Shown here one piece after another: positions 28,373-60,245 of a stretch of 64,000 nt of DNA. Below the pieces are notes generated by a model. That model had not been told where the DNA came from, did no database searches, and saw only the letters and a list, made by a program, of their open reading frames with translations. Position 1 is the first letter of the stretch, and every line of letters begins with the position of its first letter. The stretch comes from a virus. The stretch spans positions 1 through 64,000 of IMG/VR virus record IMGVR_UViG_3300032289_001637; one strand, written 5' to 3'. Position numbers and translations under genes: made by a program.

Positions 28373-30157
28373 TTAAATTAAATTAAAATTTATGAGATAA
28401 TCTCTAATGTCTTCTGTCATCTCAGGTTTAGATTTTATCACATTATCAATATCTTTGTCAACTTTTGGACGAGATTTGTATGTATGAATTTCTACTTCCT
28501 GAATCTTTTCTCTTCTTGTATGGCTGATTGCATTGTATACAGATCCGCACATAGCATCTGCAAGGTCCTTAGACTTTTTTCTTGGGTGGTCAACTCTATT
28601 ATTATTCATAATTCTAAGCTCTTGCATTTCCTCAAGTAATAAATCTATTTGAGGCAAAACTATTCTTTCTTCATAAATAAGCATGGATAAGTCTTCGTAG
28701 TGTTTTTTAGCTACCGACAAAGTTTCTGTTTTTATTCCTACACTTGTTAAGTCTCTTTGAATATCAAAAGAATTCCATCGGTCAAAAGTTACTAAGCCAA
28801 GATTAAACCCAAGTCTCCTTAGATTAATAATCCAATTTTTTACTTCTGACAAATCTACTGGACCTTCTTTTTTTGGCTCCCAATAAACAATAGCATCAAC
28901 TACAATAAAAGGAACTACTTGCTCATACCCATTAAAAGATTGAAGACTTACCCACTTATCAACATGGCAAATAGAAACTGCACACTTATCATGCTTTTGT
29001 GCCAAGTCAGCATGAACGTAGTATGTAATTTCAGGATCTGGCTGAAAAGAGTGTTCTATTCTTTTTGAAACATCAATTGGATTAATTTTTTTAAATGCCA
29101 TAGATAGCTTTTCTCTATTCTTAAAGAATGCATCTGATGAAGTTGTTGGCATACATGCAAAACGCATTTGTGCATCAGCCATGTCAGTTAAGAATGCTAT
29201 CTTAAAGTCTTCGATATTTCTTGTTGGGTTAATTTCCCAAGTTGGTCTTTTTAATGCAAACACTCCAGGAATTCTGTATGAATTAATAACGTCTTCATCC
29301 CATTCAACAGTAAACTTATTATTTGGATCGTCTTCAGAAAGTAATGGGTTAATAATAAACTCATGTGACCTAAGAAGAGTTTCTTTTTCAGCAATTACAT
29401 CTTCATACCTTGTTGTAATAAAGTCACCCTTAAAACGAGGAAAAGATAGAAGTACTACCTTTCCATAATCTGGAAAACGTGAGTCTACAGATCCACGAAA
29501 TGCTTTATAAATATTGTCAGCAGTTTTAGCTTGATCATTTCCACTTGCAGATTCCATTGCAAAGCCAGAAATCTCATCCAAGATTGCAAGTATAAGGTTT
29601 AAGCCTTCAGCAGATTCTCTTTCAGAGTGTCCAGAATAAACTGTAATTGACTTATCAAATTCTATACTATCAATTTTTGGTGGATCAAACTTTCCTGCAA
29701 ACCAAGGTGATCCAGTAATTTTTGTCTTAAATCCTTTAAAAAAAACATTTTTTGCCTGTTGAGCATTGATAGCAACATTCATAATATCAATAGCATCATT
29801 GGTTGGCTTACCAAAATATCTTGATGGATCTTTTAAACATAATAGTTTATAAACTAAGTATGCACATCCAACTGTTGAAGAAAAGTCTTTTCCGCTACCC
29901 TTACCAAGCTGCATAATTATTTCATTTTTTGTATACTTCTTAAAATGTTCTTTACCTGCCTCTTCACCCATAAATCTAATTAAATCTTTTTCTTTGTAAA
30001 TTTGACTCATACATTCTACTAAAGTATATTGATACTCGGAAAGCGGTGGTTGATTTAAATATTTTTCACCTTCAACAAATGTTTTTGCATCTACTGGAGT
30101 TTCTGCAAATGGAGACTCGTCAAGAGCTTCCATAAACTCACTAATATCAATTGTCAA
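28373..30157 (-). CDS. terL: Terminase large subunit
   Basis: GKGSGKD Walker A, ILDE Walker B, RNase H-like HADLA, FDRWNS, KDLADA. Confidence 0.85.
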   Translation of the reverse strand: MTIDISEFMEALDESPFAETPVDAKTFVEGEKYLNQPPLSEYQYTLVECMSQIYKEKDLIRFMGEEAGKEHFKKYTKNEIIMQLGKGSGKDFSSTVGCAYLVYKLLCLKDPSRYFGKPTNDAIDIMNVAINAQQAKNVFFKGFKTKITGSPWFAGKFDPPKIDSIEFDKSITVYSGHSERESAEGLNLILAILDEISGFAMESASGNDQAKTADNIYKAFRGSVDSRFPDYGKVVLLSFPRFKGDFITTRYEDVIAEKETLLRSHEFIINPLLSEDDPNNKFTVEWDEDVINSYRIPGVFALKRPTWEINPTRNIEDFKIAFLTDMADAQMRFACMPTTSSDAFFKNREKLSMAFKKINPIDVSKRIEHSFQPDPEITYYVHADLAQKHDKCAVSICHVDKWVSLQSFNGYEQVVPFIVVDAIVYWEPKKEGPVDLSEVKNWIINLRRLGFNLGLVTFDRWNSFDIQRDLTSVGIKTETLSVAKKHYEDLSMLIYEERIVLPQIDLLLEEMQELRIMNNNRVDHPRKKSKDLADAMCGSVYNAISHTRREKIQEVEIHTYKSRPKVDKDIDNVIKSKPEMTEDIRDYLINFNLI

Positions 30158-49930: not shown

Positions 49931-50514
49931 TATACTTCCTCAAGAGAAATAGAAATATCCCAAAGGTCGTGGTTAGTTCCGCCTCTTTTAACAACATTGT
50001 AGCTAAAATCTGAAACAAAAACTTCTAAGATGTCAGAGTATTTGTCAAGTTTACTATAAGATCCTACAGAAAAACTTTGTGGCTTATCATAAGACAAGAA
50101 CATGTAAAAAGATCCAGGATTAGTGCTGTACCAGTCTAACAGCTCTGCTCCACCTGCACCGCCATCTGCGGTATATTCAACTAAATCATCTATATACTGA
50201 CCACTTGCAGTAAAAGATTGACTTCCACTAAATGATCTGGATGGTAGTAAATTGTAAGAAAAAGAAATATTTATCTTATCTGCAATGTGATAAGAACGCA
50301 TGTGACCGTTTACCATTCTTTTTTTATTTTCAAGTCTATTTGTATTAAAACTAATATCACTTCTATTGTGATCAGAGAGTATTATGAAGTCTTCTCCTTC
50401 TACCCCAGAAATTTGTGGAACACCGTCTAGAAGCCCTCCAGAATTATTAGAAAAAATAACTGCTTGTGGTCTAATCCATTTTTTTCTACTACTTAAATAT
50501 GCACTACTAACCAT
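49930..50514 (-). CDS. Distal tail protein candidate
   Basis: Directly after the TMP; RMVNG.MR, ISLEEV end. Confidence 0.65.
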   Translation of the reverse strand: MVSSAYLSSRKKWIRPQAVIFSNNSGGLLDGVPQISGVEGEDFIILSDHNRSDISFNTNRLENKKRMVNGHMRSYHIADKINISFSYNLLPSRSFSGSQSFTASGQYIDDLVEYTADGGAGGAELLDWYSTNPGSFYMFLSYDKPQSFSVGSYSKLDKYSDILEVFVSDFSYNVVKRGGTNHDLWDISISLEEV

Positions 50515-53500
50515 TAGTATCTACTACTCCTTAAATTTCCTCTATTTTGCTGTGAAAGCTTAGCCATTACAACATTTGCAATATCATCTGGACTTGCATC
50601 TGTACCAGCAACATTTACATTTACGTTGTATGTATTATTATACATTGTTTCAGGTCCTTGTGCTTTACCAGATTGAGGAATGTCGTATCTAGATCCACTA
50701 ACTCCAAATGTTGGCTGACTCATTTCTGGCAATTCAAAAGCACCCAGATTAATTGCTTCAAGAAGTGGCATTCCATATTTTCCAACCATTGCTTTTCTTA
50801 TTACAAATTCTCCAGGAGTTAGTCTTGCGGAAACACTGTCTAGACTTCCAATACCTGGAACAATTCCTCCAGTATTAAAATAGTTTGTTGATGCAATTGC
50901 TTTCTTTACAAATTTTGTAATTTCTATCTTTTTATCATTGCTAAGAGTTGCATACTTTTCATCCATTTCATCTGCTTTTACAGTATATGCTTTTGGATCT
51001 ACATATCCCATTTTTTGAGCAATATAGTGTTGTTCTTTATTTTTACCAAAGGAAAGCTTAGAATTTAAAATACCTGCTTTAAATTCAGCTTTGGTATAAG
51101 GAACATAGGCAGCAACAGGGGATATGACAGGAGGCTTCACAGGAGTTGTTACAGGAGTTGCCACAGGAGTTGCCACAGGAGTTGTCACAGGAGTTGTCAC
51201 AGGAGTTGTCACAGGAGTTGTCACAGGAGTAGGGGAAAGAGAGTCAACTTTTTCAACAACAACTGGTGCAGCAATATTATCGGCTGTACCACCGCCACCA
51301 CCAGTACCAAGAATTGTGTTATCAGCCTGTCCAGGAGTTCCAATTTTCTCAACAACTGCAGCTTTTTCTGCAACGTTATATGCATCAATATAGTCTTGCA
51401 AGTCTTTTAGTGCTTTACCAGTTAAACCTGCTGCCCTCAATGCTTCAATATTTTGCTTCATCTTTGTTAGCAATATCTTGTATTCTAATTTAGCTCTTTC
51501 CTTATCTATATCATTCTGTTTTTTAGAATTTTCATATATTGCATCTTGAACCACTTGCATATCTTGTTCATTTTTGTAAATTGTTTCACCAAAAGAGGAG
51601 ATTTGTTCTGTAATTTGCTTTCTTGTCATTAAGACACCATTTACAGATATAGATAGTGACTCAAGTTCTTTTTGTCTTTGTGTTTCTAATGCAGCCCTTG
51701 CATCTTCAATTTGATATTGAGCATCTTGTGTTTGAATTTCACTAGCCATATTTGCTGCTGCTGCAATATCTCCAGATGCTAAGGCTGATGCTAATCCAAC
51801 TCTTGAACGGTTTTGTTGATCAATTCTGTTATTTGCTTTTTCAACCTTATCAAGTGCAGAAATTCTATCATCATAAGTTTTATTAACCTTTTCTTCTTCT
51901 TTTGCAAGAAGATCCAAAGCATGGTTTCTTATATTTATTTGACGTTGTATTAATTCATTTTCTCTTTCCATTCCAGAAAGTTTTGTTTCTAATGCTGAGT
52001 TTTCAAGAGTTATTGCTGAAGCTGCAAGATCTAACGTATCTAAAGTTCTTTCTTCTGAACTCTTTGTTAAAAATTCAAGTGCTCTTTGAACATTTAATTG
52101 CTCTTTTAATGTATCTATATACTCTTTCTTTGCAGCAGTAGTAGAATGTTGATAAAGTTCTACATCTATCAATCCAGCAATTTCACCATTAATACCTTGA
52201 GTTACAAGTTGCTTGGTTATGTCTAACTGATCTTTTAATCCATTTACATTTTTCTTTATATCTACAAGACCTTGTACTGCATTTAGTTTCTTTTGAGCCT
52301 CAGTTTGCTTATTTAATTCTTCAATATAGGATTTTCTTTGTTGAGTTGTCATAGCCAAGAATGCTTTTTGATCAATCATTCCTTCAACATCTGAATTTAT
52401 TTCAACGCCTAGCTTATTTAATGCATCAGAATATTCGCTTATCTCTTTTGTTTGTTTTTTAGCATCAGCAAGTGCCATTGTTGCTGCTAGTGTAGATTGT
52501 GCCTGTACTTGTTTGTTTAACTCTGCAATGTAAACCTTTCTTTCTGCAGTGGTCATTGCTAAGAAAGCCTTTTGATCAATCATTCCTTCAACATCAGAAT
52601 CTATTACAACTCCTAAACCACTTAGTACAGAAGAATAGTCACTCATCTCTTTTGTTTGTTTTTTAGCATCAGCAAGTGCCATTGTTGCTGCCAACCTAGT
52701 TTGTGCTGATGCTTGTTTGTTTAACTCTGCAATGTAAACCTTTCTTTCTGCAGTGGTCATTGCAAGGAATGCTTTCTGATCAATCATCCCTTCAATGTCA
52801 GAAGTTATTACAACACCCAAAGATCCAAGTGTCTTTGAATATTTACTTAGGTCTGATGTAGCTTTTTGAGTTTCTGCAAGAACCATTACTGCATTTAATC
52901 TATTCTGCAATGCAATTTGAGATTGCATGGTCTTAATAAGGTCTGCTCTTTTATTTTTTGCAGTATTTAAATATACATCTTGAGGAATCATGCTAAGAGC
53001 TTCTACATTATTGGCATCTGCAACACCCTTAATCAGATTTGTATAATTTTTAATTTCTTTATTTTGACTCTCAGCATCTTTTAAGAATGTTACTGCCTGT
53101 TCTTTTTTAGTAGGAGGTTTTGTCCCTCCTCCTCCTCCTCCTCCATCTTCATTAAAAGGAGTTTGACCTGTACCATCAATGTTTAATGATTGAATAAAGT
53201 CTGCCTGATCTTTTATCTTTTTTGCATAGTCTGCTTTTATTTTTGCATTTGCTGCTGCTACCCCTGCACCACCTCTACCATCTGTTTCTTGTTGAAGCTG
53301 TGGCATTGCTCCAACTGTTTGCATTGCAATCACAAAAGATGTTAAATATGTTTTTTGCTGACTTGCAGGAAGTGCGTTAAATGCATCCACTTCTTTTTGA
53401 GTTGCATCATATCCAACTGATTCAAATACGGTTGTTAATGCTTTTTCATTATCACCACCACTTTGCATTATAAGATTATTAGCTTTTGTTACAGCATCTT

Positions 53501-56500
53501 TAATTTCTTTTTCAGGGTCCTTTCCAGTTCCATCAAATAGTTTAAATAGTTCAATTGGATCAAATCCCTTTGGTGCAACTTTAGCAATTTTATCTATTGT
53601 GTCTTGTATTGACTTAGTGTAAGCTTCTGGATCTGTAAACTCTGTATCTCCATTTAAATATGATGTATACATTGAAAGGTCAAATCCATCAGGAAGACTG
53701 TTTAAAACTTCTTCTAAATCTTTTATAGAGTCTGCATTTGTTCCAATTTTTATTGCAATATCTGGATCTCCAAGTTCTGTAAGAGCAGATTCTATTTGAG
53801 TAAACGATAAAGTTGTTCCAGAATCTGTAATAGCTTTTTGCATATTTGTTGCTACTGTTTGAGGGTCATAATTTTTAGTAGGACTAGAGGCAATGGTAGC
53901 TCCAACAAATTTTTCAAGTTGGGCAGACTCCATAATTGCTTTCATTTCTTGCGGAGTTGGGGTTGTTCCATCTTCAGATGCCTTTAGCAACTTTTCTTTG
54001 TATAAAGCCCAAACGCCTTGAATATCTCCTATTTTTGCTCCATAGTTTTCTGGAGTTAGTCCATCTAATGTACTTGCAATAATAGTTGAAACAATTTCTT
54101 GCTGGGCTGTATCAAGCTTTGAAAAGTCTGCTTGTCCAAAAACTTCTGCAGCAACCTTATCTCTATCGGTTGCCCTTGCTACTACAGCTGCTGAATCTGA
54201 ACTAAATCCTGAAAGAAATAATTGATCAGCTATTGTTTGCTGAGTCGCTCCAGAATCTTTTGTATTCATTACTGCATTTTCAATATTGTCATAAGATATC
54301 TGTCTAATCTCTTGAATCTTTTTTTCTCTAGTTTCAAATTCTTGAGTAGTGATGCTTCCATTTTTTCTTTCTTCGTTTAAAAGAGCTTCTGCATTTTTTA
54401 ATTCTTTTAATGTTTGTATTGAAGATCCAAAAGTTTTTCCTACTGCTGCAACATTTGCTTCTATTGCTTTCTTGTTAGCAAAAAATGCAGTTGCTGCACC
54501 GCCAACTGCACCAATTACAGCACCAAGGGCTATACCAAAAGCTGCAAATGGACCACTCCAGGATGTTAAAACTCCACCAAGAACTGCACCTGCTGCTCCA
54601 CCAGCAATAGCTCCACCAGCAAAACTTTGATTTGCAGTAAAGCGGTTAGAGTTAATTTCAGGCAGGTCTTTATTTAAAGCGGCTTGTCTTTTTTCAATAG
54701 AAGAAATCATTGCTTTAGATCCAGATTCTAAAGTGCCAGATCTAATAAGACCAATAACCTTTGATTTTAATAATGAATCGTCTAATGCAAAAGCAATTGC
54801 AGATCCAAAAGATTCTGCTTTTTTAGGATCCATTCCGTCTGCAATAGCCATTTCAAGCATAGATGCAACTTTTTTATACCTATCTTCTGATGAAGATTTT
54901 TTAAGATCCTCAACTAACTTCTTTCCTTCATCAGTATCAAAGTAAGGCATAATTTCAGAAGCACCCTGTGCTTGTTTTTCTGTAAACCTATAGTCTTGCG
55001 TTCCAGATCTAACTGATGCAAAAGAATATCCAGTAGCAGAACTTATTTCTTCCATTCTATTTGCAGTCCCACCAAGATTTGCTCCTGCAATTGCAGAAGA
55101 CTTTGCAAGACCATCAACATGCTTTCTCATCATTACAAAACCTGCTGCCAGTAGTCCAACTCCAGCAGTAACTGTTCCAGCTGTTTTTCCTAGTTGCTGA
55201 AGCATTGGAATAATAGCCATAGCAGCACCAACACCCATAAGAGCTTGTTGTTGTTTTGGATTTTCTACGAAACTTGAAGCCATCATTGGAACCATTGATG
55301 CCATCATCATTCCTTGACCTGCTTTTTGCATTCTTTGTGCTCTAGCTTCTGCTCTTGCTGCTTTTGCTTCAGGAGTATTCCTAGCTTCTTTTCTAGCTAA
55401 CATAGCAGCTTTTTTATTTTCAATTAAGCTTAAAGCCATATTTTTTCCAAGTAGGGCTGTATTTTTTGCAGCACCAGTCATTGCTGTTCCAATATTTCCA
55501 AGCTGTCTATTTATTCCAATCATTCTATCTTTATTAATGATTTGTTGTTGAACTACCTTCTTTTCAATTGCCTCTCTTGCTTGAAAATATCTTTCTCCAG
55601 CCCTTGCATATACCATATTGTTTGCTGATATAGTTTTAAAAGTTTCTGTCATTTTTTTTGCAGTAGATGAAAGTGTGGCTGAAGTATCTTTAAATACTCC
55701 TTGACCAGTATTAGATCTACTTTGCAACTGATATGGATCACTCATGCCCATCATAATTCTTGCTCTTCTTGATGGCATTCCAGGAAGTGTTGGAAGAACT
55801 ACTCTCTGTCTATTTTCTTTAGCAAAATATTGCATACCTGGTACTTTTCCACCAGAATTCATCATTAGTCTTGGAGGAGCTTCTCTAGAACCCTTGTAAG
55901 CAATTCCTCCCATATTTAGTCCTTGTGCATTTCCACTATTAATAGCAGTTAATAAATCATAATTTCTTCTTGTTGCATCTTTATTAACTACAAATTCTCC
56001 AGGAGTTAACATTGCAGGAACTGTATCTGTATTGCCTTGACCTGGAACAATACTTCCTTTATTTGCTTTTAGCATTCCTTGGAATCTTGAAGCACTTGAA
56101 TAAATATCTCCACCGAGACCTCTGATTGAAGTTAGATCTCTAAGCATAATTGCAGAGTAAGCTTCATCTGCATTTCTATAACCAGCTGATTTTGCTGCTT
56201 CATCTAATGCTGATCTATCTCCAATTCTTGAAGGAAGTTTGAAAGAAGGAACTCTAGCAATAGCTGACTCAACAGCATCATCATACATTTTTGCAAATTG
56301 TGCTTTAGTTAATCCTTCACGAGCAATAGCATCTCCAAGCATCTTAACAAAGTCTTTTGATGCCCCTGTTTTTTCAGTTACTTGTGTAATTGCTCTTGCA
56401 GTATAAGCCCCAGTATTTGTTGCCTCATTTCCAAAACTAATTTCAGACCCAGTTGCTCTTCTAAATACACCCTTTGAGTTTCTAATTAATTTAACAGCTG

Positions 56501-59500
56501 CAGCACCAGGATCAATTGTTGCAAGTCTTCCTCCACCAGTTGAAAGAATGTTTCCAGCTGTTGCATCCATGTCTCCAAGCATTGATGAAGCAGGTATTTG
56601 TTTTAAAAGTTCTTTAGTAGGAAGCGTTGTTCCTGCCTTCATTCCTGGAATCATTGGAGCAGTTGTTGCAAAGATTTCTCCCTCAGGACCATCCATTCTT
56701 ACAATTCTTGATCCAGGAGTTGCAGTACCTGCAATTCTTCTTCTTGCGGCATTTCCAATTAATTCTGCTTGAGCCTCTGCAAGAGTAGGAAATGGCTTAA
56801 CAAACATCTTTCTACCATCAACATCATAGACTCCAGCTATGTCTCTAAACCTACTGCTATGTCCTGTTGAATCTTCAACCTTTGTTCCAGTAAACTTTTT
56901 AATTTGAGATTTTGCAACAACACGATTTGGCATTCTTGCACCAAAGTATTGAACAGCTCCACCAGCATTATAACCAAGTCTGCTGCCTCCTGTTGTAAGA
57001 TATTTTTCTAAACCAATTAGTTGGCTTGGAACAAAGTTTTGAGGACCAGTACCAGAAGCCATAAAGACTTTTCCATCACCTTGACCATCTGATGCTACAA
57101 AGGAAATTTTTCCAGGTGTACCTGAAGAACCAATACTTCTATATACTCCAACTCTTCCTTCAGAATCTCTGTAATTAGCCCCAATACCTCCAAGGCTTTT
57201 TAAATCTATAACTTCTTGACGAGACAAGACTCTATATCCTTCTCTTTCTAGTCTGGAAATAACTTCAGGCTTATCTAAATCTGATGGTCCTGAAACTTTA
57301 AGCTGTCTATTAATTTCCGAAGTTTCAGTTCTAAATTGCATAGGTTTTTTTAATAGTTTATAAATTTCTGGATTATTCTTTTTAATAATGCTTTGATAAA
57401 TTGGACCAATATCTGCATCCATTAAAGTTTTGCTTGGATCCATTCTTCTAATTCTTTCTACAAACTGAGCTTTTATTTTTTCTAAGTTTGCTGGAGATTC
57501 AAGTCTTCCTGCAACAGCCGACAATGGTTCAAACATTTTAGAGGCTGGAACATTTTCTAATCTTTGAGCCAATTCTGATGGACTAAATCCACTTCCACCT
57601 CTTCTTAAGTTTTGGTTAATGCTTCTTGGAAGATTAACTGTAAACCCAGTTTGAAGAGTTAAGGGGGATCCGCCAATTGTTTCAAATATTCTTCTTAACA
57701 ATGGATGCTTGATTTGCTTAGCTTGAGAAATATTTACCGATTCTAAATCTTTTCTAGAAAGCATATGTGTTAATTCATATTTTTCATCTATTTGTCCAGC
57801 TCCAACAGGCTGATTTCTTGGTTGTAATGGTACTGCTACATTTCCTCTCCTTACTGCTTGACCTTGTGCAATATTTTCTAGCTCTCTTTGTCTTCTTGCA
57901 TTTTCTCCTACTCCAACCTGTCCAAATGGAACATCTTCTCTTCTAAGATTATTATTTCTATTTCTAACTACACGATTTGGTCTTGGTCCTGCAAAATATT
58001 GCATTCCAGGAATCATTCCACCATTATTAAAATTATTACCGCTATTAATTGCATCAAGAAGTGCATAGTTTTGTGCAGTAGCCTGTTTGTTTACAACAAA
58101 TTCTCCAGGTGTAAGCATCGCTGGAACTGTGTCTGTATTTCCAACTCCAGGAACAGTAGTTCCTCCAGACATAAAGATTGGTCCACCTTTATTTCTTCTT
58201 AGACCTCTTATTCTAATTGAACTAGCTTTTACTCCACTTGCTGCTGCAGCTCCAGCTGCTGCTGCCACTCCAAGCCCAGGTCTGGTCGCTGCTGCTTGTT
58301 GCTGAACTGATATTAATGCTCTGTATTCTGCAACAAGACCTGCTACTGCATTCCTAGCTGCTCCTGTAGAAGTTGCTTGTTCTAGCATTGCAGCGTTTGC
58401 TATCTGTGTAGAACTTGCTAATTGTTTTGCAGCACCAGCTGCTTCTAATTCTTCAATTGATAAATATTTTGCAGATTGTGTAAGTGCTTTTACTGCTGCT
58501 ACTGGACCACCCTTAATAAGTGCCTTTCCAAAAATTCCAAATCCATGAGTAATTTTTCCAAGGGTTCCAAGTAAGTTAATTAAAAGACCAAGGAACATTG
58601 TTCCAGCAGGAACTACAACACCAACAATTACTGCTGCAATAGCTGCAAATTGTTTTTGACCATCTGAAAGACCATCAAATTTTTCAACAATTTTTGTTAA
58701 GAAGTTTACAACTGGAATTGCCATCTTAATAAATATTTCACCAATTGGTTCAAGAGATAGTTTTAATCTTTCTACTGCTCCAGTAAGCTGTGTTCCTAAA
58801 GCATTTTCTACCGCTGCAAGTTCTTTTTCTGCTGTAGTTCTTAATGCTGTAACATCATATTCCATCAAACTTAAAACTTGACTTGCTTGAGATCCATCTC
58901 TAACAATATTTTCAAACAAAGCTCCAAGTCTTGCATATTGATACTTTCCAAACACCTTTTCAAGTGCTTGTTGCTTTGAAAAATCATCTAATCCTTTAAG
59001 GGCTTCACCAAAAGCAAATACTGTTCCCATCAAATCTCCACGATTTGCAGAAATAATTTTATCTAAATTAATTCCAAATCCTGACAAAGTTTCTGTTGCT
59101 GCTTTTGTTGGATTAATTAAAGATGCAAGACCAGACTTTAATGCGTTAGCACCTTGCTCTGCACTTACACCACCTTCTTGCATTGCTGCAAGGAATACTG
59201 ACATGTCTCGTACATCTCCACCAAGACCTTTAATAACTGGAGCAACTCTTGGAATTGCTGCGGATAAGTCTTGCAAAGAAACTACTGTTTGGTTTTCAAC
59301 CATATTCAAAAAGTTAATTGTATCTGCTAAATCTTCTCCAGATAATCTAAAAGCAGACTGTAGGGCTATTGTAGTTTTTAATGCCTCTTGCTGTTCCATT
59401 TGACCAAGCGTTGCAAGTCTTGTCGCTTGTCTTGTTGCATCTATCAAATCACCATTTCTTGCACCAGATGCTGCTGCGTTTGCAGCCAACCCAATAGTAT

Positions 59501-60245
59501 CTTTTACTGCAATTCCATATTTTGTATATTCTTCAGCAAGTTGTCTAACTTGTGCAATGTTTTGATTAACTTCTTCTGGAGTTGTAAAAGCATCTCCATA
59601 TACCTTTTTAAGGTTTACTAATTGCTTTTCAATATCCATAAAGGTTCTACCTGCAACTGATCCTAGTACAGTTAATGGAACAGTAAATCCAACCATAAGC
59701 TGACGACCAGACCATTGAACATTTTTACCAAAGTTAATCATGTGGGTAGTACCCTGTCTAAACATTGTATTTAGAAGAGCTTGTCTTTCTGCAGCTATTG
59801 CTGCTTTAGAAGAAAAAGCATCAAGTGGTCTAATTGCAAGGGCTTCTCCCATACCCTTTGCTGATGCACCAGTATTAATAAACTGTGTTTGCAGTGTAGA
59901 AGCTCTTCTTGCTGCAAGATCCATAGTTGCTGCAAAAGCAGCACTGTTCTTATTAAATGCAGAACTAAAGAATTGACCTAAAGTTCCTCTACCCTTTTTT
60001 AAAGTACTATCAAGATTTGCAGCTGCAGAATTCATCTTCATAAATTCTGAAGTGAATAGCCCACTTGAATTTATTGCTTTTGAAAGATCTCTTGTATAGT
60101 CGGAAGCAAACTTGCCTTGGGCAAGATTCCCCTTAGCCAAGGCAGCGTTAAATGAGTTTATTTGATTTTGAAGTGCTTTAAGCTCAGCAGCAGCAGATCC
60201 AGTATTAATCTGGATATCAATAATACCTTTAGCTACTCCAGCCAT
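50514..60245 (-). CDS. Tape measure protein with internal cargo domains
   Basis: 3243 aa, Ala/Gly-rich helical N-terminal TMP domain, TM segments, follows the tail chaperones. Confidence 0.9.
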   Translation of the reverse strand: MAGVAKGIIDIQINTGSAAAELKALQNQINSFNAALAKGNLAQGKFASDYTRDLSKAINSSGLFTSEFMKMNSAAANLDSTLKKGRGTLGQFFSSAFNKNSAAFAATMDLAARRASTLQTQFINTGASAKGMGEALAIRPLDAFSSKAAIAAERQALLNTMFRQGTTHMINFGKNVQWSGRQLMVGFTVPLTVLGSVAGRTFMDIEKQLVNLKKVYGDAFTTPEEVNQNIAQVRQLAEEYTKYGIAVKDTIGLAANAAASGARNGDLIDATRQATRLATLGQMEQQEALKTTIALQSAFRLSGEDLADTINFLNMVENQTVVSLQDLSAAIPRVAPVIKGLGGDVRDMSVFLAAMQEGGVSAEQGANALKSGLASLINPTKAATETLSGFGINLDKIISANRGDLMGTVFAFGEALKGLDDFSKQQALEKVFGKYQYARLGALFENIVRDGSQASQVLSLMEYDVTALRTTAEKELAAVENALGTQLTGAVERLKLSLEPIGEIFIKMAIPVVNFLTKIVEKFDGLSDGQKQFAAIAAVIVGVVVPAGTMFLGLLINLLGTLGKITHGFGIFGKALIKGGPVAAVKALTQSAKYLSIEELEAAGAAKQLASSTQIANAAMLEQATSTGAARNAVAGLVAEYRALISVQQQAAATRPGLGVAAAAGAAAASGVKASSIRIRGLRRNKGGPIFMSGGTTVPGVGNTDTVPAMLTPGEFVVNKQATAQNYALLDAINSGNNFNNGGMIPGMQYFAGPRPNRVVRNRNNNLRREDVPFGQVGVGENARRQRELENIAQGQAVRRGNVAVPLQPRNQPVGAGQIDEKYELTHMLSRKDLESVNISQAKQIKHPLLRRIFETIGGSPLTLQTGFTVNLPRSINQNLRRGGSGFSPSELAQRLENVPASKMFEPLSAVAGRLESPANLEKIKAQFVERIRRMDPSKTLMDADIGPIYQSIIKKNNPEIYKLLKKPMQFRTETSEINRQLKVSGPSDLDKPEVISRLEREGYRVLSRQEVIDLKSLGGIGANYRDSEGRVGVYRSIGSSGTPGKISFVASDGQGDGKVFMASGTGPQNFVPSQLIGLEKYLTTGGSRLGYNAGGAVQYFGARMPNRVVAKSQIKKFTGTKVEDSTGHSSRFRDIAGVYDVDGRKMFVKPFPTLAEAQAELIGNAARRRIAGTATPGSRIVRMDGPEGEIFATTAPMIPGMKAGTTLPTKELLKQIPASSMLGDMDATAGNILSTGGGRLATIDPGAAAVKLIRNSKGVFRRATGSEISFGNEATNTGAYTARAITQVTEKTGASKDFVKMLGDAIAREGLTKAQFAKMYDDAVESAIARVPSFKLPSRIGDRSALDEAAKSAGYRNADEAYSAIMLRDLTSIRGLGGDIYSSASRFQGMLKANKGSIVPGQGNTDTVPAMLTPGEFVVNKDATRRNYDLLTAINSGNAQGLNMGGIAYKGSREAPPRLMMNSGGKVPGMQYFAKENRQRVVLPTLPGMPSRRARIMMGMSDPYQLQSRSNTGQGVFKDTSATLSSTAKKMTETFKTISANNMVYARAGERYFQAREAIEKKVVQQQIINKDRMIGINRQLGNIGTAMTGAAKNTALLGKNMALSLIENKKAAMLARKEARNTPEAKAARAEARAQRMQKAGQGMMMASMVPMMASSFVENPKQQQALMGVGAAMAIIPMLQQLGKTAGTVTAGVGLLAAGFVMMRKHVDGLAKSSAIAGANLGGTANRMEEISSATGYSFASVRSGTQDYRFTEKQAQGASEIMPYFDTDEGKKLVEDLKKSSSEDRYKKVASMLEMAIADGMDPKKAESFGSAIAFALDDSLLKSKVIGLIRSGTLESGSKAMISSIEKRQAALNKDLPEINSNRFTANQSFAGGAIAGGAAGAVLGGVLTSWSGPFAAFGIALGAVIGAVGGAATAFFANKKAIEANVAAVGKTFGSSIQTLKELKNAEALLNEERKNGSITTQEFETREKKIQEIRQISYDNIENAVMNTKDSGATQQTIADQLFLSGFSSDSAAVVARATDRDKVAAEVFGQADFSKLDTAQQEIVSTIIASTLDGLTPENYGAKIGDIQGVWALYKEKLLKASEDGTTPTPQEMKAIMESAQLEKFVGATIASSPTKNYDPQTVATNMQKAITDSGTTLSFTQIESALTELGDPDIAIKIGTNADSIKDLEEVLNSLPDGFDLSMYTSYLNGDTEFTDPEAYTKSIQDTIDKIAKVAPKGFDPIELFKLFDGTGKDPEKEIKDAVTKANNLIMQSGGDNEKALTTVFESVGYDATQKEVDAFNALPASQQKTYLTSFVIAMQTVGAMPQLQQETDGRGGAGVAAANAKIKADYAKKIKDQADFIQSLNIDGTGQTPFNEDGGGGGGGTKPPTKKEQAVTFLKDAESQNKEIKNYTNLIKGVADANNVEALSMIPQDVYLNTAKNKRADLIKTMQSQIALQNRLNAVMVLAETQKATSDLSKYSKTLGSLGVVITSDIEGMIDQKAFLAMTTAERKVYIAELNKQASAQTRLAATMALADAKKQTKEMSDYSSVLSGLGVVIDSDVEGMIDQKAFLAMTTAERKVYIAELNKQVQAQSTLAATMALADAKKQTKEISEYSDALNKLGVEINSDVEGMIDQKAFLAMTTQQRKSYIEELNKQTEAQKKLNAVQGLVDIKKNVNGLKDQLDITKQLVTQGINGEIAGLIDVELYQHSTTAAKKEYIDTLKEQLNVQRALEFLTKSSEERTLDTLDLAASAITLENSALETKLSGMERENELIQRQINIRNHALDLLAKEEEKVNKTYDDRISALDKVEKANNRIDQQNRSRVGLASALASGDIAAAANMASEIQTQDAQYQIEDARAALETQRQKELESLSISVNGVLMTRKQITEQISSFGETIYKNEQDMQVVQDAIYENSKKQNDIDKERAKLEYKILLTKMKQNIEALRAAGLTGKALKDLQDYIDAYNVAEKAAVVEKIGTPGQADNTILGTGGGGGTADNIAAPVVVEKVDSLSPTPVTTPVTTPVTTPVTTPVATPVATPVTTPVKPPVISPVAAYVPYTKAEFKAGILNSKLSFGKNKEQHYIAQKMGYVDPKAYTVKADEMDEKYATLSNDKKIEITKFVKKAIASTNYFNTGGIVPGIGSLDSVSARLTPGEFVIRKAMVGKYGMPLLEAINLGAFELPEMSQPTFGVSGSRYDIPQSGKAQGPETMYNNTYNVNVNVAGTDASPDDIANVVMAKLSQQNRGNLRSSRY
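51139..51230. repeat. 12-bp tandem repeat (about 7.7 copies, ACAGGAGTTGYY) encoding PV(T/A)T
   Basis: Read directly. Confidence 0.9.
52290..52900. repeat. Three 204-bp (68-aa) tandem repeats within the TMP
   Basis: TGATCAATCAT at 52369, 52573, 52777; EGMIDQKAFLAMTT repeated. Confidence 0.85.

Follow-up and report, generated by a model that had tools for sequence, protein, structure and literature searches.

We report a kinase-fold domain embedded in the tape measure protein (TMP) of a tailed phage. The stretch of DNA analyzed here, referred to below as the window, comprises 64,000 nucleotides (positions 1 to 64,000 of IMG/VR record IMGVR_UViG_3300032289_001637) and lies within a 94-kb virus record with an estimated completeness of 87%. 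An uninterrupted open reading frame (ORF) at 50514..60245, identified from the ORF list and its translation, encodes a TMP of 3243 amino acids (aa). The kinase-fold domain occupies residues 1110-1400 of this protein (~290 residues; 56046..56918), as delimited by an AlphaFold (AF2) model, matches to kinase structures, and an alignment of 84 sequences. By sequence, it is a new family. Because its catalytic set is invariant, ATP-dependent phosphotransfer is the likeliest activity, and the domain is probably an active ATP-dependent phosphotransferase. All features described below are on the minus strand, and residue numbers refer to the TMP unless stated otherwise.

Catalytic motifs and their conservation

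Four short strings define the catalytic core. AGVYDVDGRKMFVKP (residues 1137-1151; 56793-56837) contains K1150 (56796..56798), which corresponds to the beta-3 lysine of kinases, and AQAELIG (residues 1158-1164) contains E1161 (56763..56765), the counterpart of the helix-C glutamate. The catalytic loop, D1225-x-D1227-x4-N1232 (56550..56573), is part of LGDMDATAGNIL (residues 1223-1234); this string and AQAELIG both fall within 56505-56837. LATIDPG (residues 1241-1247; 56505-56525) ends in D1245-P-G1247 (56505..56513), a DFG-like metal-binding motif. The original prediction, which proposed a HipA- or phosphatidylinositol (PI) kinase-like domain between 56080 and 56900, had listed these four strings in this order, and all were found there in the TMP translation, at residues 1137-1247.

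Two further elements flank this core. The loop between strands 1 and 2, with G1128, S1130, and G1138 (56832..56864), is a candidate nucleotide-binding (Gly-rich) loop and a putative P-loop. Downstream, a GVFxxA(S/T)G motif (residues 1259-1266; 56448..56471) takes the position of the activation segment; in the window's subfamily, an insertion of 9 residues separates it from the DxG motif.

To collect relatives, a 313-aa segment was used as a query against 1.8 billion representative proteins. Ten matches were found, each within a long protein, and the distant ones among them (25-39% identity) retained the Lys, the Glu, the G-D-K-D-L-x-x-G-N loop, and D-x-G. Pattern scans seeded with the alignment yielded 111 relatives in viral contigs, 198 in metagenome contigs, and 2 in species genomes. 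The final alignment, designated A4, consisted of 84 domain sequences cut from their loci, with near-duplicates removed and the window copy placed first. The window's subfamily is represented by four sequences, including the window copy, to which the other three are 86-90% identical. The remaining 80 sequences, the major family, share only 22-29% identity with the window copy.

Across A4, K1150, D1225, D1227, N1232, D1245, and G1247 were invariant (84/84), and E1161 was present in 82 sequences, with Gln in the remaining two. The motifs named in the original prediction are therefore conserved in homologues. The same invariance was found for G1128, S1130, and G1138 before strand 2 and for G1259, A1264, and G1266 of the GVFxxA(S/T)G motif (84/84 in each case). 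The middle residue of DxG was V in 70 sequences and P in 10. Eighteen residues separate D1227 from D1245, and the spacing between the catalytic Asp and the DxG Asp is the same in PKA. A chance motif string is ruled out by conservation across 84 divergent sequences; since the motifs are kept despite 22-29% identity, they are functional rather than accidental.

The domain departs from canonical kinases in two places. Histidine was found in the catalytic loop of none of the 84 sequences, the loop of the window being D-M-D-A-T-A-G-N and that of the major family D-K-D-L-x-x-G-N. An invariant Asp instead stands two residues before the catalytic Asp, giving D-x-D-x4-N as opposed to the H-x-D of HRD kinases; the lack of the usual loop His had been noted correctly at the outset. 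GxGxxG is likewise absent; the loop ahead of strand 2 has the invariant G1128, S1130, and G1138 in its place, and its form in the major family is GxGGxY.

These departures bear on whether the domain is catalytic at all. In favor of a pseudokinase, or of a spacer that serves only to lengthen the TMP or offer a docking surface, the canonical HRD His and the GxGxxG loop are missing, and PAN3 and MLKL appear among the weaker structural matches described below. However, pseudokinases have typically lost one or more catalytic residues, whereas here the catalytic positions are invariant in 84 sequences that are otherwise ~25% identical. Because of this invariance, we regard a noncatalytic spacer as very unlikely. 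The residues for ATP-Mg binding and phosphate transfer are all kept (K1150, E1161, D1227 as the putative catalytic base, N1232, and D1245), in agreement with an active phosphotransferase.

Predicted fold and structural relatives

A first AlphaFold run on a 12-row alignment produced a model with a predicted local distance difference test (pLDDT) score of 53.5 and Foldseek matches that were not significant; the run on the 84-row alignment was used instead. Its best model had a pLDDT of 75.6 and a predicted template modeling score (pTM) of 0.79. In model numbering, the N-lobe begins with a strand at 12-16 and the G-x-S...G loop, followed by a hairpin at 29-33/36-43 that ends in the Lys, a helix at 46-63 that carries the Glu, and strands at 71-77 and 80-88. 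Helices at 101-114 lead to the D-x-D-x4-N loop, after which come two strands (124-126 and 132-134) and D-x-G. The next stretch, at 137-168, which includes the 9-residue insertion of the window's subfamily, has low confidence, and the remainder of the model, to residue 285, consists of five to six helices.

This is the canonical order of kinase elements, with each motif on the expected element. K1150 is in the predicted strand 36-43 and E1161 is in the predicted helix 46-63; the catalytic loop follows the predicted helix 107-114 and precedes strand 124-126, and the DxG motif comes directly after strand 132-134. The helical C-lobe (residues 1278-1394; 56064..56414) corresponds to the predicted helices at 169-285, where pLDDT was mostly 78-94. 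The model predicts a complete protein-kinase-like (PKL) domain at ~1110-1400, its N-lobe built of five strands and helix C and its C-lobe helical.

In a Foldseek search of the Protein Data Bank (PDB), the top 50 matches were all kinases or pseudokinases, with probabilities of up to 0.99 and E values from 4e-4. The AlphaFold and Foldseek check proposed along with the original prediction thus returned a bilobal model of the kinase type. A second look with VIA-align covered the best 1000 Foldseek matches; the best Z score of a model without a clear match is typically 7-8 in this procedure. The highest score belonged to Helicobacter pylori CtkA (PDB 3akj/3akk/3akl), a secreted atypical Ser/Thr kinase (Z 12.7, 212 residues aligned, root mean square deviation 4.2). 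It was followed by CotH (Z 11.1), PI4KII alpha/beta (Z 10.5-11.0), MavQ (Z 9.9), LepB (Z 9.4), Vps34 (Z 8.8), and HipA (Z 8.2), and canonical eukaryotic-type kinases scored ~7-8. The top group was clearly above the 7-8 baseline, with both lobes covered (model residues 5 to ~272). The helical C-lobe was included in the alignments to CtkA, CotH, and PI4KII, which extended up to ~270-280 of the model. Similarity of fold to lipid kinases was therefore evident.

An independent lead came from the ESM Atlas. The nearest named clusters there carry HipA_2, PI3_PI4_kinase, and LepB_N, and in one neighbor cluster 38% of the members have PF00454. Together, the structural matches and the Atlas clusters support a fold-level assignment of the modeled domain to the atypical HipA/PI-kinase neighborhood.

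The structural matches also included RIO1, RIO2, RIOK1, Bud32/PRPK, and SidJ, and a kinase fold may serve other chemistry. In principle, the domain could act as a SelO-like AMPylase, a SidJ-like glutamylase, or a RIO-like ATPase switch. Consistent with this, the D-L-x-x-G-N of the major-family loop resembles the D-L-x-x-x-N of the RIO, Bud32, and APH families, and it is unusual to find an additional invariant Asp (D1225) where HRD kinases have His. As an ATPase switch, the domain could couple nucleotide hydrolysis to a conformational step in the TMP itself, for example to insert it into a membrane or to open a channel, with no host target being modified. We consider such other chemistry unlikely and retain phosphotransfer as the probable activity.

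Relationship to known kinase families by sequence

Profile searches did not place the domain in any known family. Neither the segment nor any of 27 family members had a Pfam match, even with the E-value limit raised to 10. No PHROG matched the kinase-fold domain, and no NCBIfam model matched the segment significantly. PDB sequence searches, by phmmer with one sequence and with two family profiles, returned weak matches only, none of them to a kinase. When the A4 profile was compared to Escherichia coli HipA with hhalign, the probability was 0.3%. HipA_C (PF07804) was unmatched in the phage record, while the same profile matched in 3 control genomes.

Because these profile tests failed, the domain is neither a HipA nor a PI3/PI4-kinase proper. 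Membership of the HipA family is ruled out by the missing PF07804 match and the hhalign result; the TMP domain also differs from HipA toxin kinases in lacking the HipA N-terminal domain, an antitoxin partner, and the loop His. Membership of the PI3/PI4-kinase family proper is ruled out by the missing PF00454 match and by a loop without His, the catalytic loop of that family being DRHxxN with His included. The same two features set the domain apart from PI4KII alpha/beta and from Legionella MavQ and LepB, to which it is similar in fold. The HipA/PI-kinase likeness put forward in the original prediction is thus supported as a fold neighborhood, plainly for the lipid kinases and less clearly for HipA itself (Z 8-9), but does not extend to sequence membership of HipA_C or PF00454. 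Even for CtkA, the best structural match, sequence identity was ~10% and no sequence-level relationship was detected; CtkA is, moreover, free-standing, whereas the TMP domain is embedded in a virion protein of 3243 aa.

Below the significance threshold, NCBIfam aligned the catalytic-loop stretch (56479-56601; residues 106-146 of the segment) to RisK1, a phosphatidylinositol 3-kinase effector of the Rickettsia type IV secretion system. The match had an E value of 0.12 and 10.8 bits versus a cutoff of 800 and was not significant.

Tape measure protein and its cargo slot

The only Pfam match of the ORF was PhageMin_Tail (PF10145; residues 235-433, E 2e-27). Its PHROG matches were tape measure families (best E 2e-97) and covered only the first ~700 residues. 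The genes flanking the ORF are tail genes. The protein has the attributes of TP901-family TMPs: the PhageMin_Tail core, great length, and a position between tail chaperone-like and distal tail genes. That the domain is embedded in a TMP, as first proposed, is borne out by the PF10145 core and the PHROG TMP families of the ORF.

The domain lies in a slot bounded by two copies of a linker motif, VPGxGNTDTVPAMLTPGEFVVNK. Copy 1 (residues 698-720; 58086..58154) opens the slot and copy 2 (residues 1400-1422; 55980..56048) closes it; a third copy is found near the C-terminus (residues 3129-3151; 50793..50861). All three end in a shared GNTDTVPAMLTPGEFVVNK, and relatives have the motif at the same places. 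The linker-motif region is matched by PHROG 35029, a family of unknown function. A second repeated element, the QYF...N/RRVV junction, occurs at residues 749-760 (57966-58001), at residues 1099-1110 directly ahead of the kinase-fold domain (in the form QYF...NRVV; 56916-56951), and at residues 1472-1483 (55797-55832). The linker motifs and junctions may be sites of cleavage, docking, or recombination.

Two globular modules are found between linker copies 1 and 2, namely, module 1 (residues 761-1098; 56952-57965), directly upstream of the kinase-fold domain, and the kinase-fold domain itself. Searches of Pfam, PHROGs, and the Atlas gave no lead to the family or fold of module 1. We compared both modules, and the N-terminus, in five close relatives. 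The N-terminus was 93-98% identical to that of the window and the kinase domain 86-97% identical. Module 1 was only 23-30% identical, with 69-102 gaps, in four of the five, and the fifth kept it at 73%. Judged by these region-by-region identities, the kinase is cargo that stays constant and module 1 is a cassette that can be exchanged. Module 1 may assist the kinase in targeting or regulation, or it may itself be a second, polymorphic effector.

Full-length relatives have a constant order: the PF10145 core, a membrane segment at ~530-570, the kinase-fold domain between 500 and 1680, and the next hydrophobic cluster. In two TMP relatives, P0011 and P0017, the same scaffold and two linker motifs enclose a slot with neither a kinase domain nor a Pfam match; the slot therefore carries other cargo in some phages. 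The cargo slot of this TMP lineage is therefore modular, in the order linker motif, variable cassette, kinase, linker motif.

This layout raises the possibility that the domain acts in the producing cell. Its substrates there might be the TMP, chaperones, or other virion proteins, phosphorylated while the tail is assembled; alternatively, cleavage at the linkers, ahead of assembly or in its course, might release the module in the producer. The arrangement is polyprotein-like, with three linker copies and repeated QYF...NRVV junctions around the cargo, and a folded domain of 30 kDa fits a tail lumen poorly. However, we found no protease and no sign of cleavage, the third linker copy is so near the extreme C-terminus that nothing is left there to release, and placement of the domain in the first-ejected protein would be hard to explain by a role in the producer alone. 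A role in the producer is, in our estimation, improbable, and delivery into the host at ejection, discussed below, is preferred.

Distribution and likely host

Every homologue on an adequately long contig is a TMP, with the domain between the first membrane segment and the next hydrophobic cluster. A free-standing version was sought among proteins of 148-525 aa. Of 16 matches in this size range, 13 were fragments on contigs shorter than 3 kb, and a known domain was found in none of the 16. The Pfam, PHROG, and NCBIfam searches made here miss the kinase family, and approximately 300 metagenomic copies of it are presently annotated only as "tape measure."

The large terminase (28373-30157) shares 54-55% identity with its counterparts in Streptomyces siphophages of ~131 kb (Stanwilliamsviridae, e.g., Genie2), and Gordonia phages form the second largest group among its matches. 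A profile search of Streptomyces phage Genie2, the closest cultured relative by terminase, was empty, which is weak evidence, as it had no positive control. The two species-genome matches are metagenome-assembled genomes (MAGs) labeled Bifidobacterium and Acidimicrobiaceae, both Actinomycetota; one homologous protein is labeled as coming from a Chitinophagia MAG. Although the G+C content of the window is low (~34%), the terminase relatives and the two Actinomycetota MAGs make an actinobacterial host likely.

Proposed role at ejection

TMPs fill the tail tube, set tail length, are expelled ahead of the DNA, and aid in crossing of the envelope (e.g., PMC5099701, PMC1796659). Because the TMP leaves the virion before the DNA, the domain would arrive in the host at the instant of infection. 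We think it reasonably likely that the PKL domain in the cargo slot, most likely an active phosphotransferase, is ejected into the host and phosphorylates a host target before phage genes are expressed. Ejection of the TMP ahead of the DNA would bring the kinase-fold domain to the host envelope or cytoplasm, where it would refold; the refolded domain would then phosphorylate its target prior to any phage gene expression. Its structural neighbors include protein kinases (CtkA, CotH, HipA, and Fam20) as well as lipid kinases (PI4KII, MavQ, and LepB), so that both substrate types are possible: the domain might act on a protein, like CtkA, HipA, and CotH, or on a membrane lipid, like the three lipid kinases.

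Several observations weigh against this proposal. The other four of the five AF2 models averaged only ~63 pLDDT. In the best model, the catalytic loop was predicted with moderate confidence (pLDDT ~59-74) and the activation-segment region (model residues 137-168) fell below 50. The meeting of K, E, D, N, and D in one pocket is predicted from topology and not from geometry. The domain was found in none of the 50,697 cultured-phage records searched by tblastn with the window segment and with a major-family member. The lumen of a siphophage tail probably has no room for three folded 30-kDa domains side by side. The domain would then need to be kept unfolded until ejection and refold afterward, or else be processed out. 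If it remained outside the cytoplasmic membrane, the domain would have no ATP; as the activity requires ATP, it must end on the cytoplasmic side.

A broader version of the proposal is that the TMP is an effector-delivery polyprotein of probably actinobacterial phages. A constant, active atypical kinase, in fold nearest to CtkA, PI4KII, and CotH, would be injected before the genome beside a freely exchangeable cassette. Within seconds of adsorption, this kinase would modify its target where the phage enters, be it a membrane lipid or a protein of defense or translation. We offer this version tentatively, as one we would not yet bet on. Actinobacteria contain phosphatidylinositol, so a lipid target is possible.

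Wall-degrading activities are known from phage TMPs, and phages are also known to express kinases early in infection. A conserved, seemingly catalytic TMP kinase would be a different strategy, in which a signaling or modifying enzyme is delivered as a protein, before the genome. Such an enzyme would act before the genome arrives and therefore ahead of any other countering of host defenses that sense phage DNA or transcription. If the broader proposal is true, no pre-expression kinase effector was known from a siphophage tail before this one. The modular slot also raises the questions of how a globular domain of 30 kDa is stored in, and released from, a tail lumen and of whether TMPs might be turned into protein-delivery scaffolds.

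Comparison with known systems

Kinase domains in the "polyvalent proteins" of phages and plasmids were predicted by Iyer et al. in 2017 (PMC5512222). As in those proteins, the domain described here is a kinase fold within a large multidomain protein that would enter the host with the DNA. The kinase clade of Iyer et al. has lost the whole C-terminal subdomain and is found in (pro)phages from the Verrucomicrobia-Chlamydia group and Bacteroidetes; TMPs are not mentioned in that paper (PMC5512222). In contrast, the TMP domain keeps its C-lobe (model residues 169-285), has a TMP as its carrier, and seemingly belongs to an actinobacterial phage. Membership of the published clade is ruled out by the helical C-lobe of the model, a distinction drawn from the published description of the clade.

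TMPs have been described as vehicles for entry activities. The TMP of mycobacteriophage TM4 carries a peptidoglycan hydrolase motif (PMC1796659), and Sle1 represents TMP-related effectors of contractile injection systems (CIS) with swappable functional domains (PMC13277306). The TMP of the window resembles both in serving as such a vehicle, and Sle1-type modules are likewise exchangeable on a TMP-like scaffold. The difference is in the cargo, which is wall degrading in known TMPs and of the kinase fold here. A kinase-fold domain in a TMP was reported nowhere in the literature that we searched and was found in none of the 50,697 cultured-phage records. What is new is thus the sequence family of the kinase fold and its carrier; the general theme, enzymes that travel with phage DNA, has been proposed before.

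Foldseek matches in BFVD (E 6e-6 to 1e-3) included a 1479-aa protein of Gordonia phage GodonK and a 1340-aa "ADP-ribosyltransferase" of Mycobacterium phage Onyinye. Further BFVD matches were an HK97-type portal fusion, a head-morphogenesis fusion, "PI3K/PI4K catalytic domain" proteins of uncultured phages, and proteins of haloarchaeal tailed viruses. Kinase-like domains of similar structure are thus present in other large phage virion proteins, which suggests a wider, little-studied set of virion-borne atypical kinases.

Other features of the tape measure ORF

A Kyte-Doolittle scan identified a first hydrophobic, transmembrane-like segment at residues 529-563 (58557..58661), with a peak of 2.43. 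A hydrophobic segment at ~530-570 was found in nearly all full-length TMP relatives. Two weaker hydrophobic clusters follow in the window TMP, at residues 1668-1707 (55125..55244) and 1874-1924 (54474-54626).

The C-terminal part of the ORF contains two tandem repeats. At 52333-52821, a 204-nucleotide (68-aa) unit is present in at least 2.4 copies, and the peptide EGMIDQKAFLAMTT recurs at residues 2485, 2553, and 2621. A 12-nucleotide unit is repeated 7.8 times at 51137-51230 and encodes a PVTT/PVAT proline-threonine linker at residues 3007-3034.

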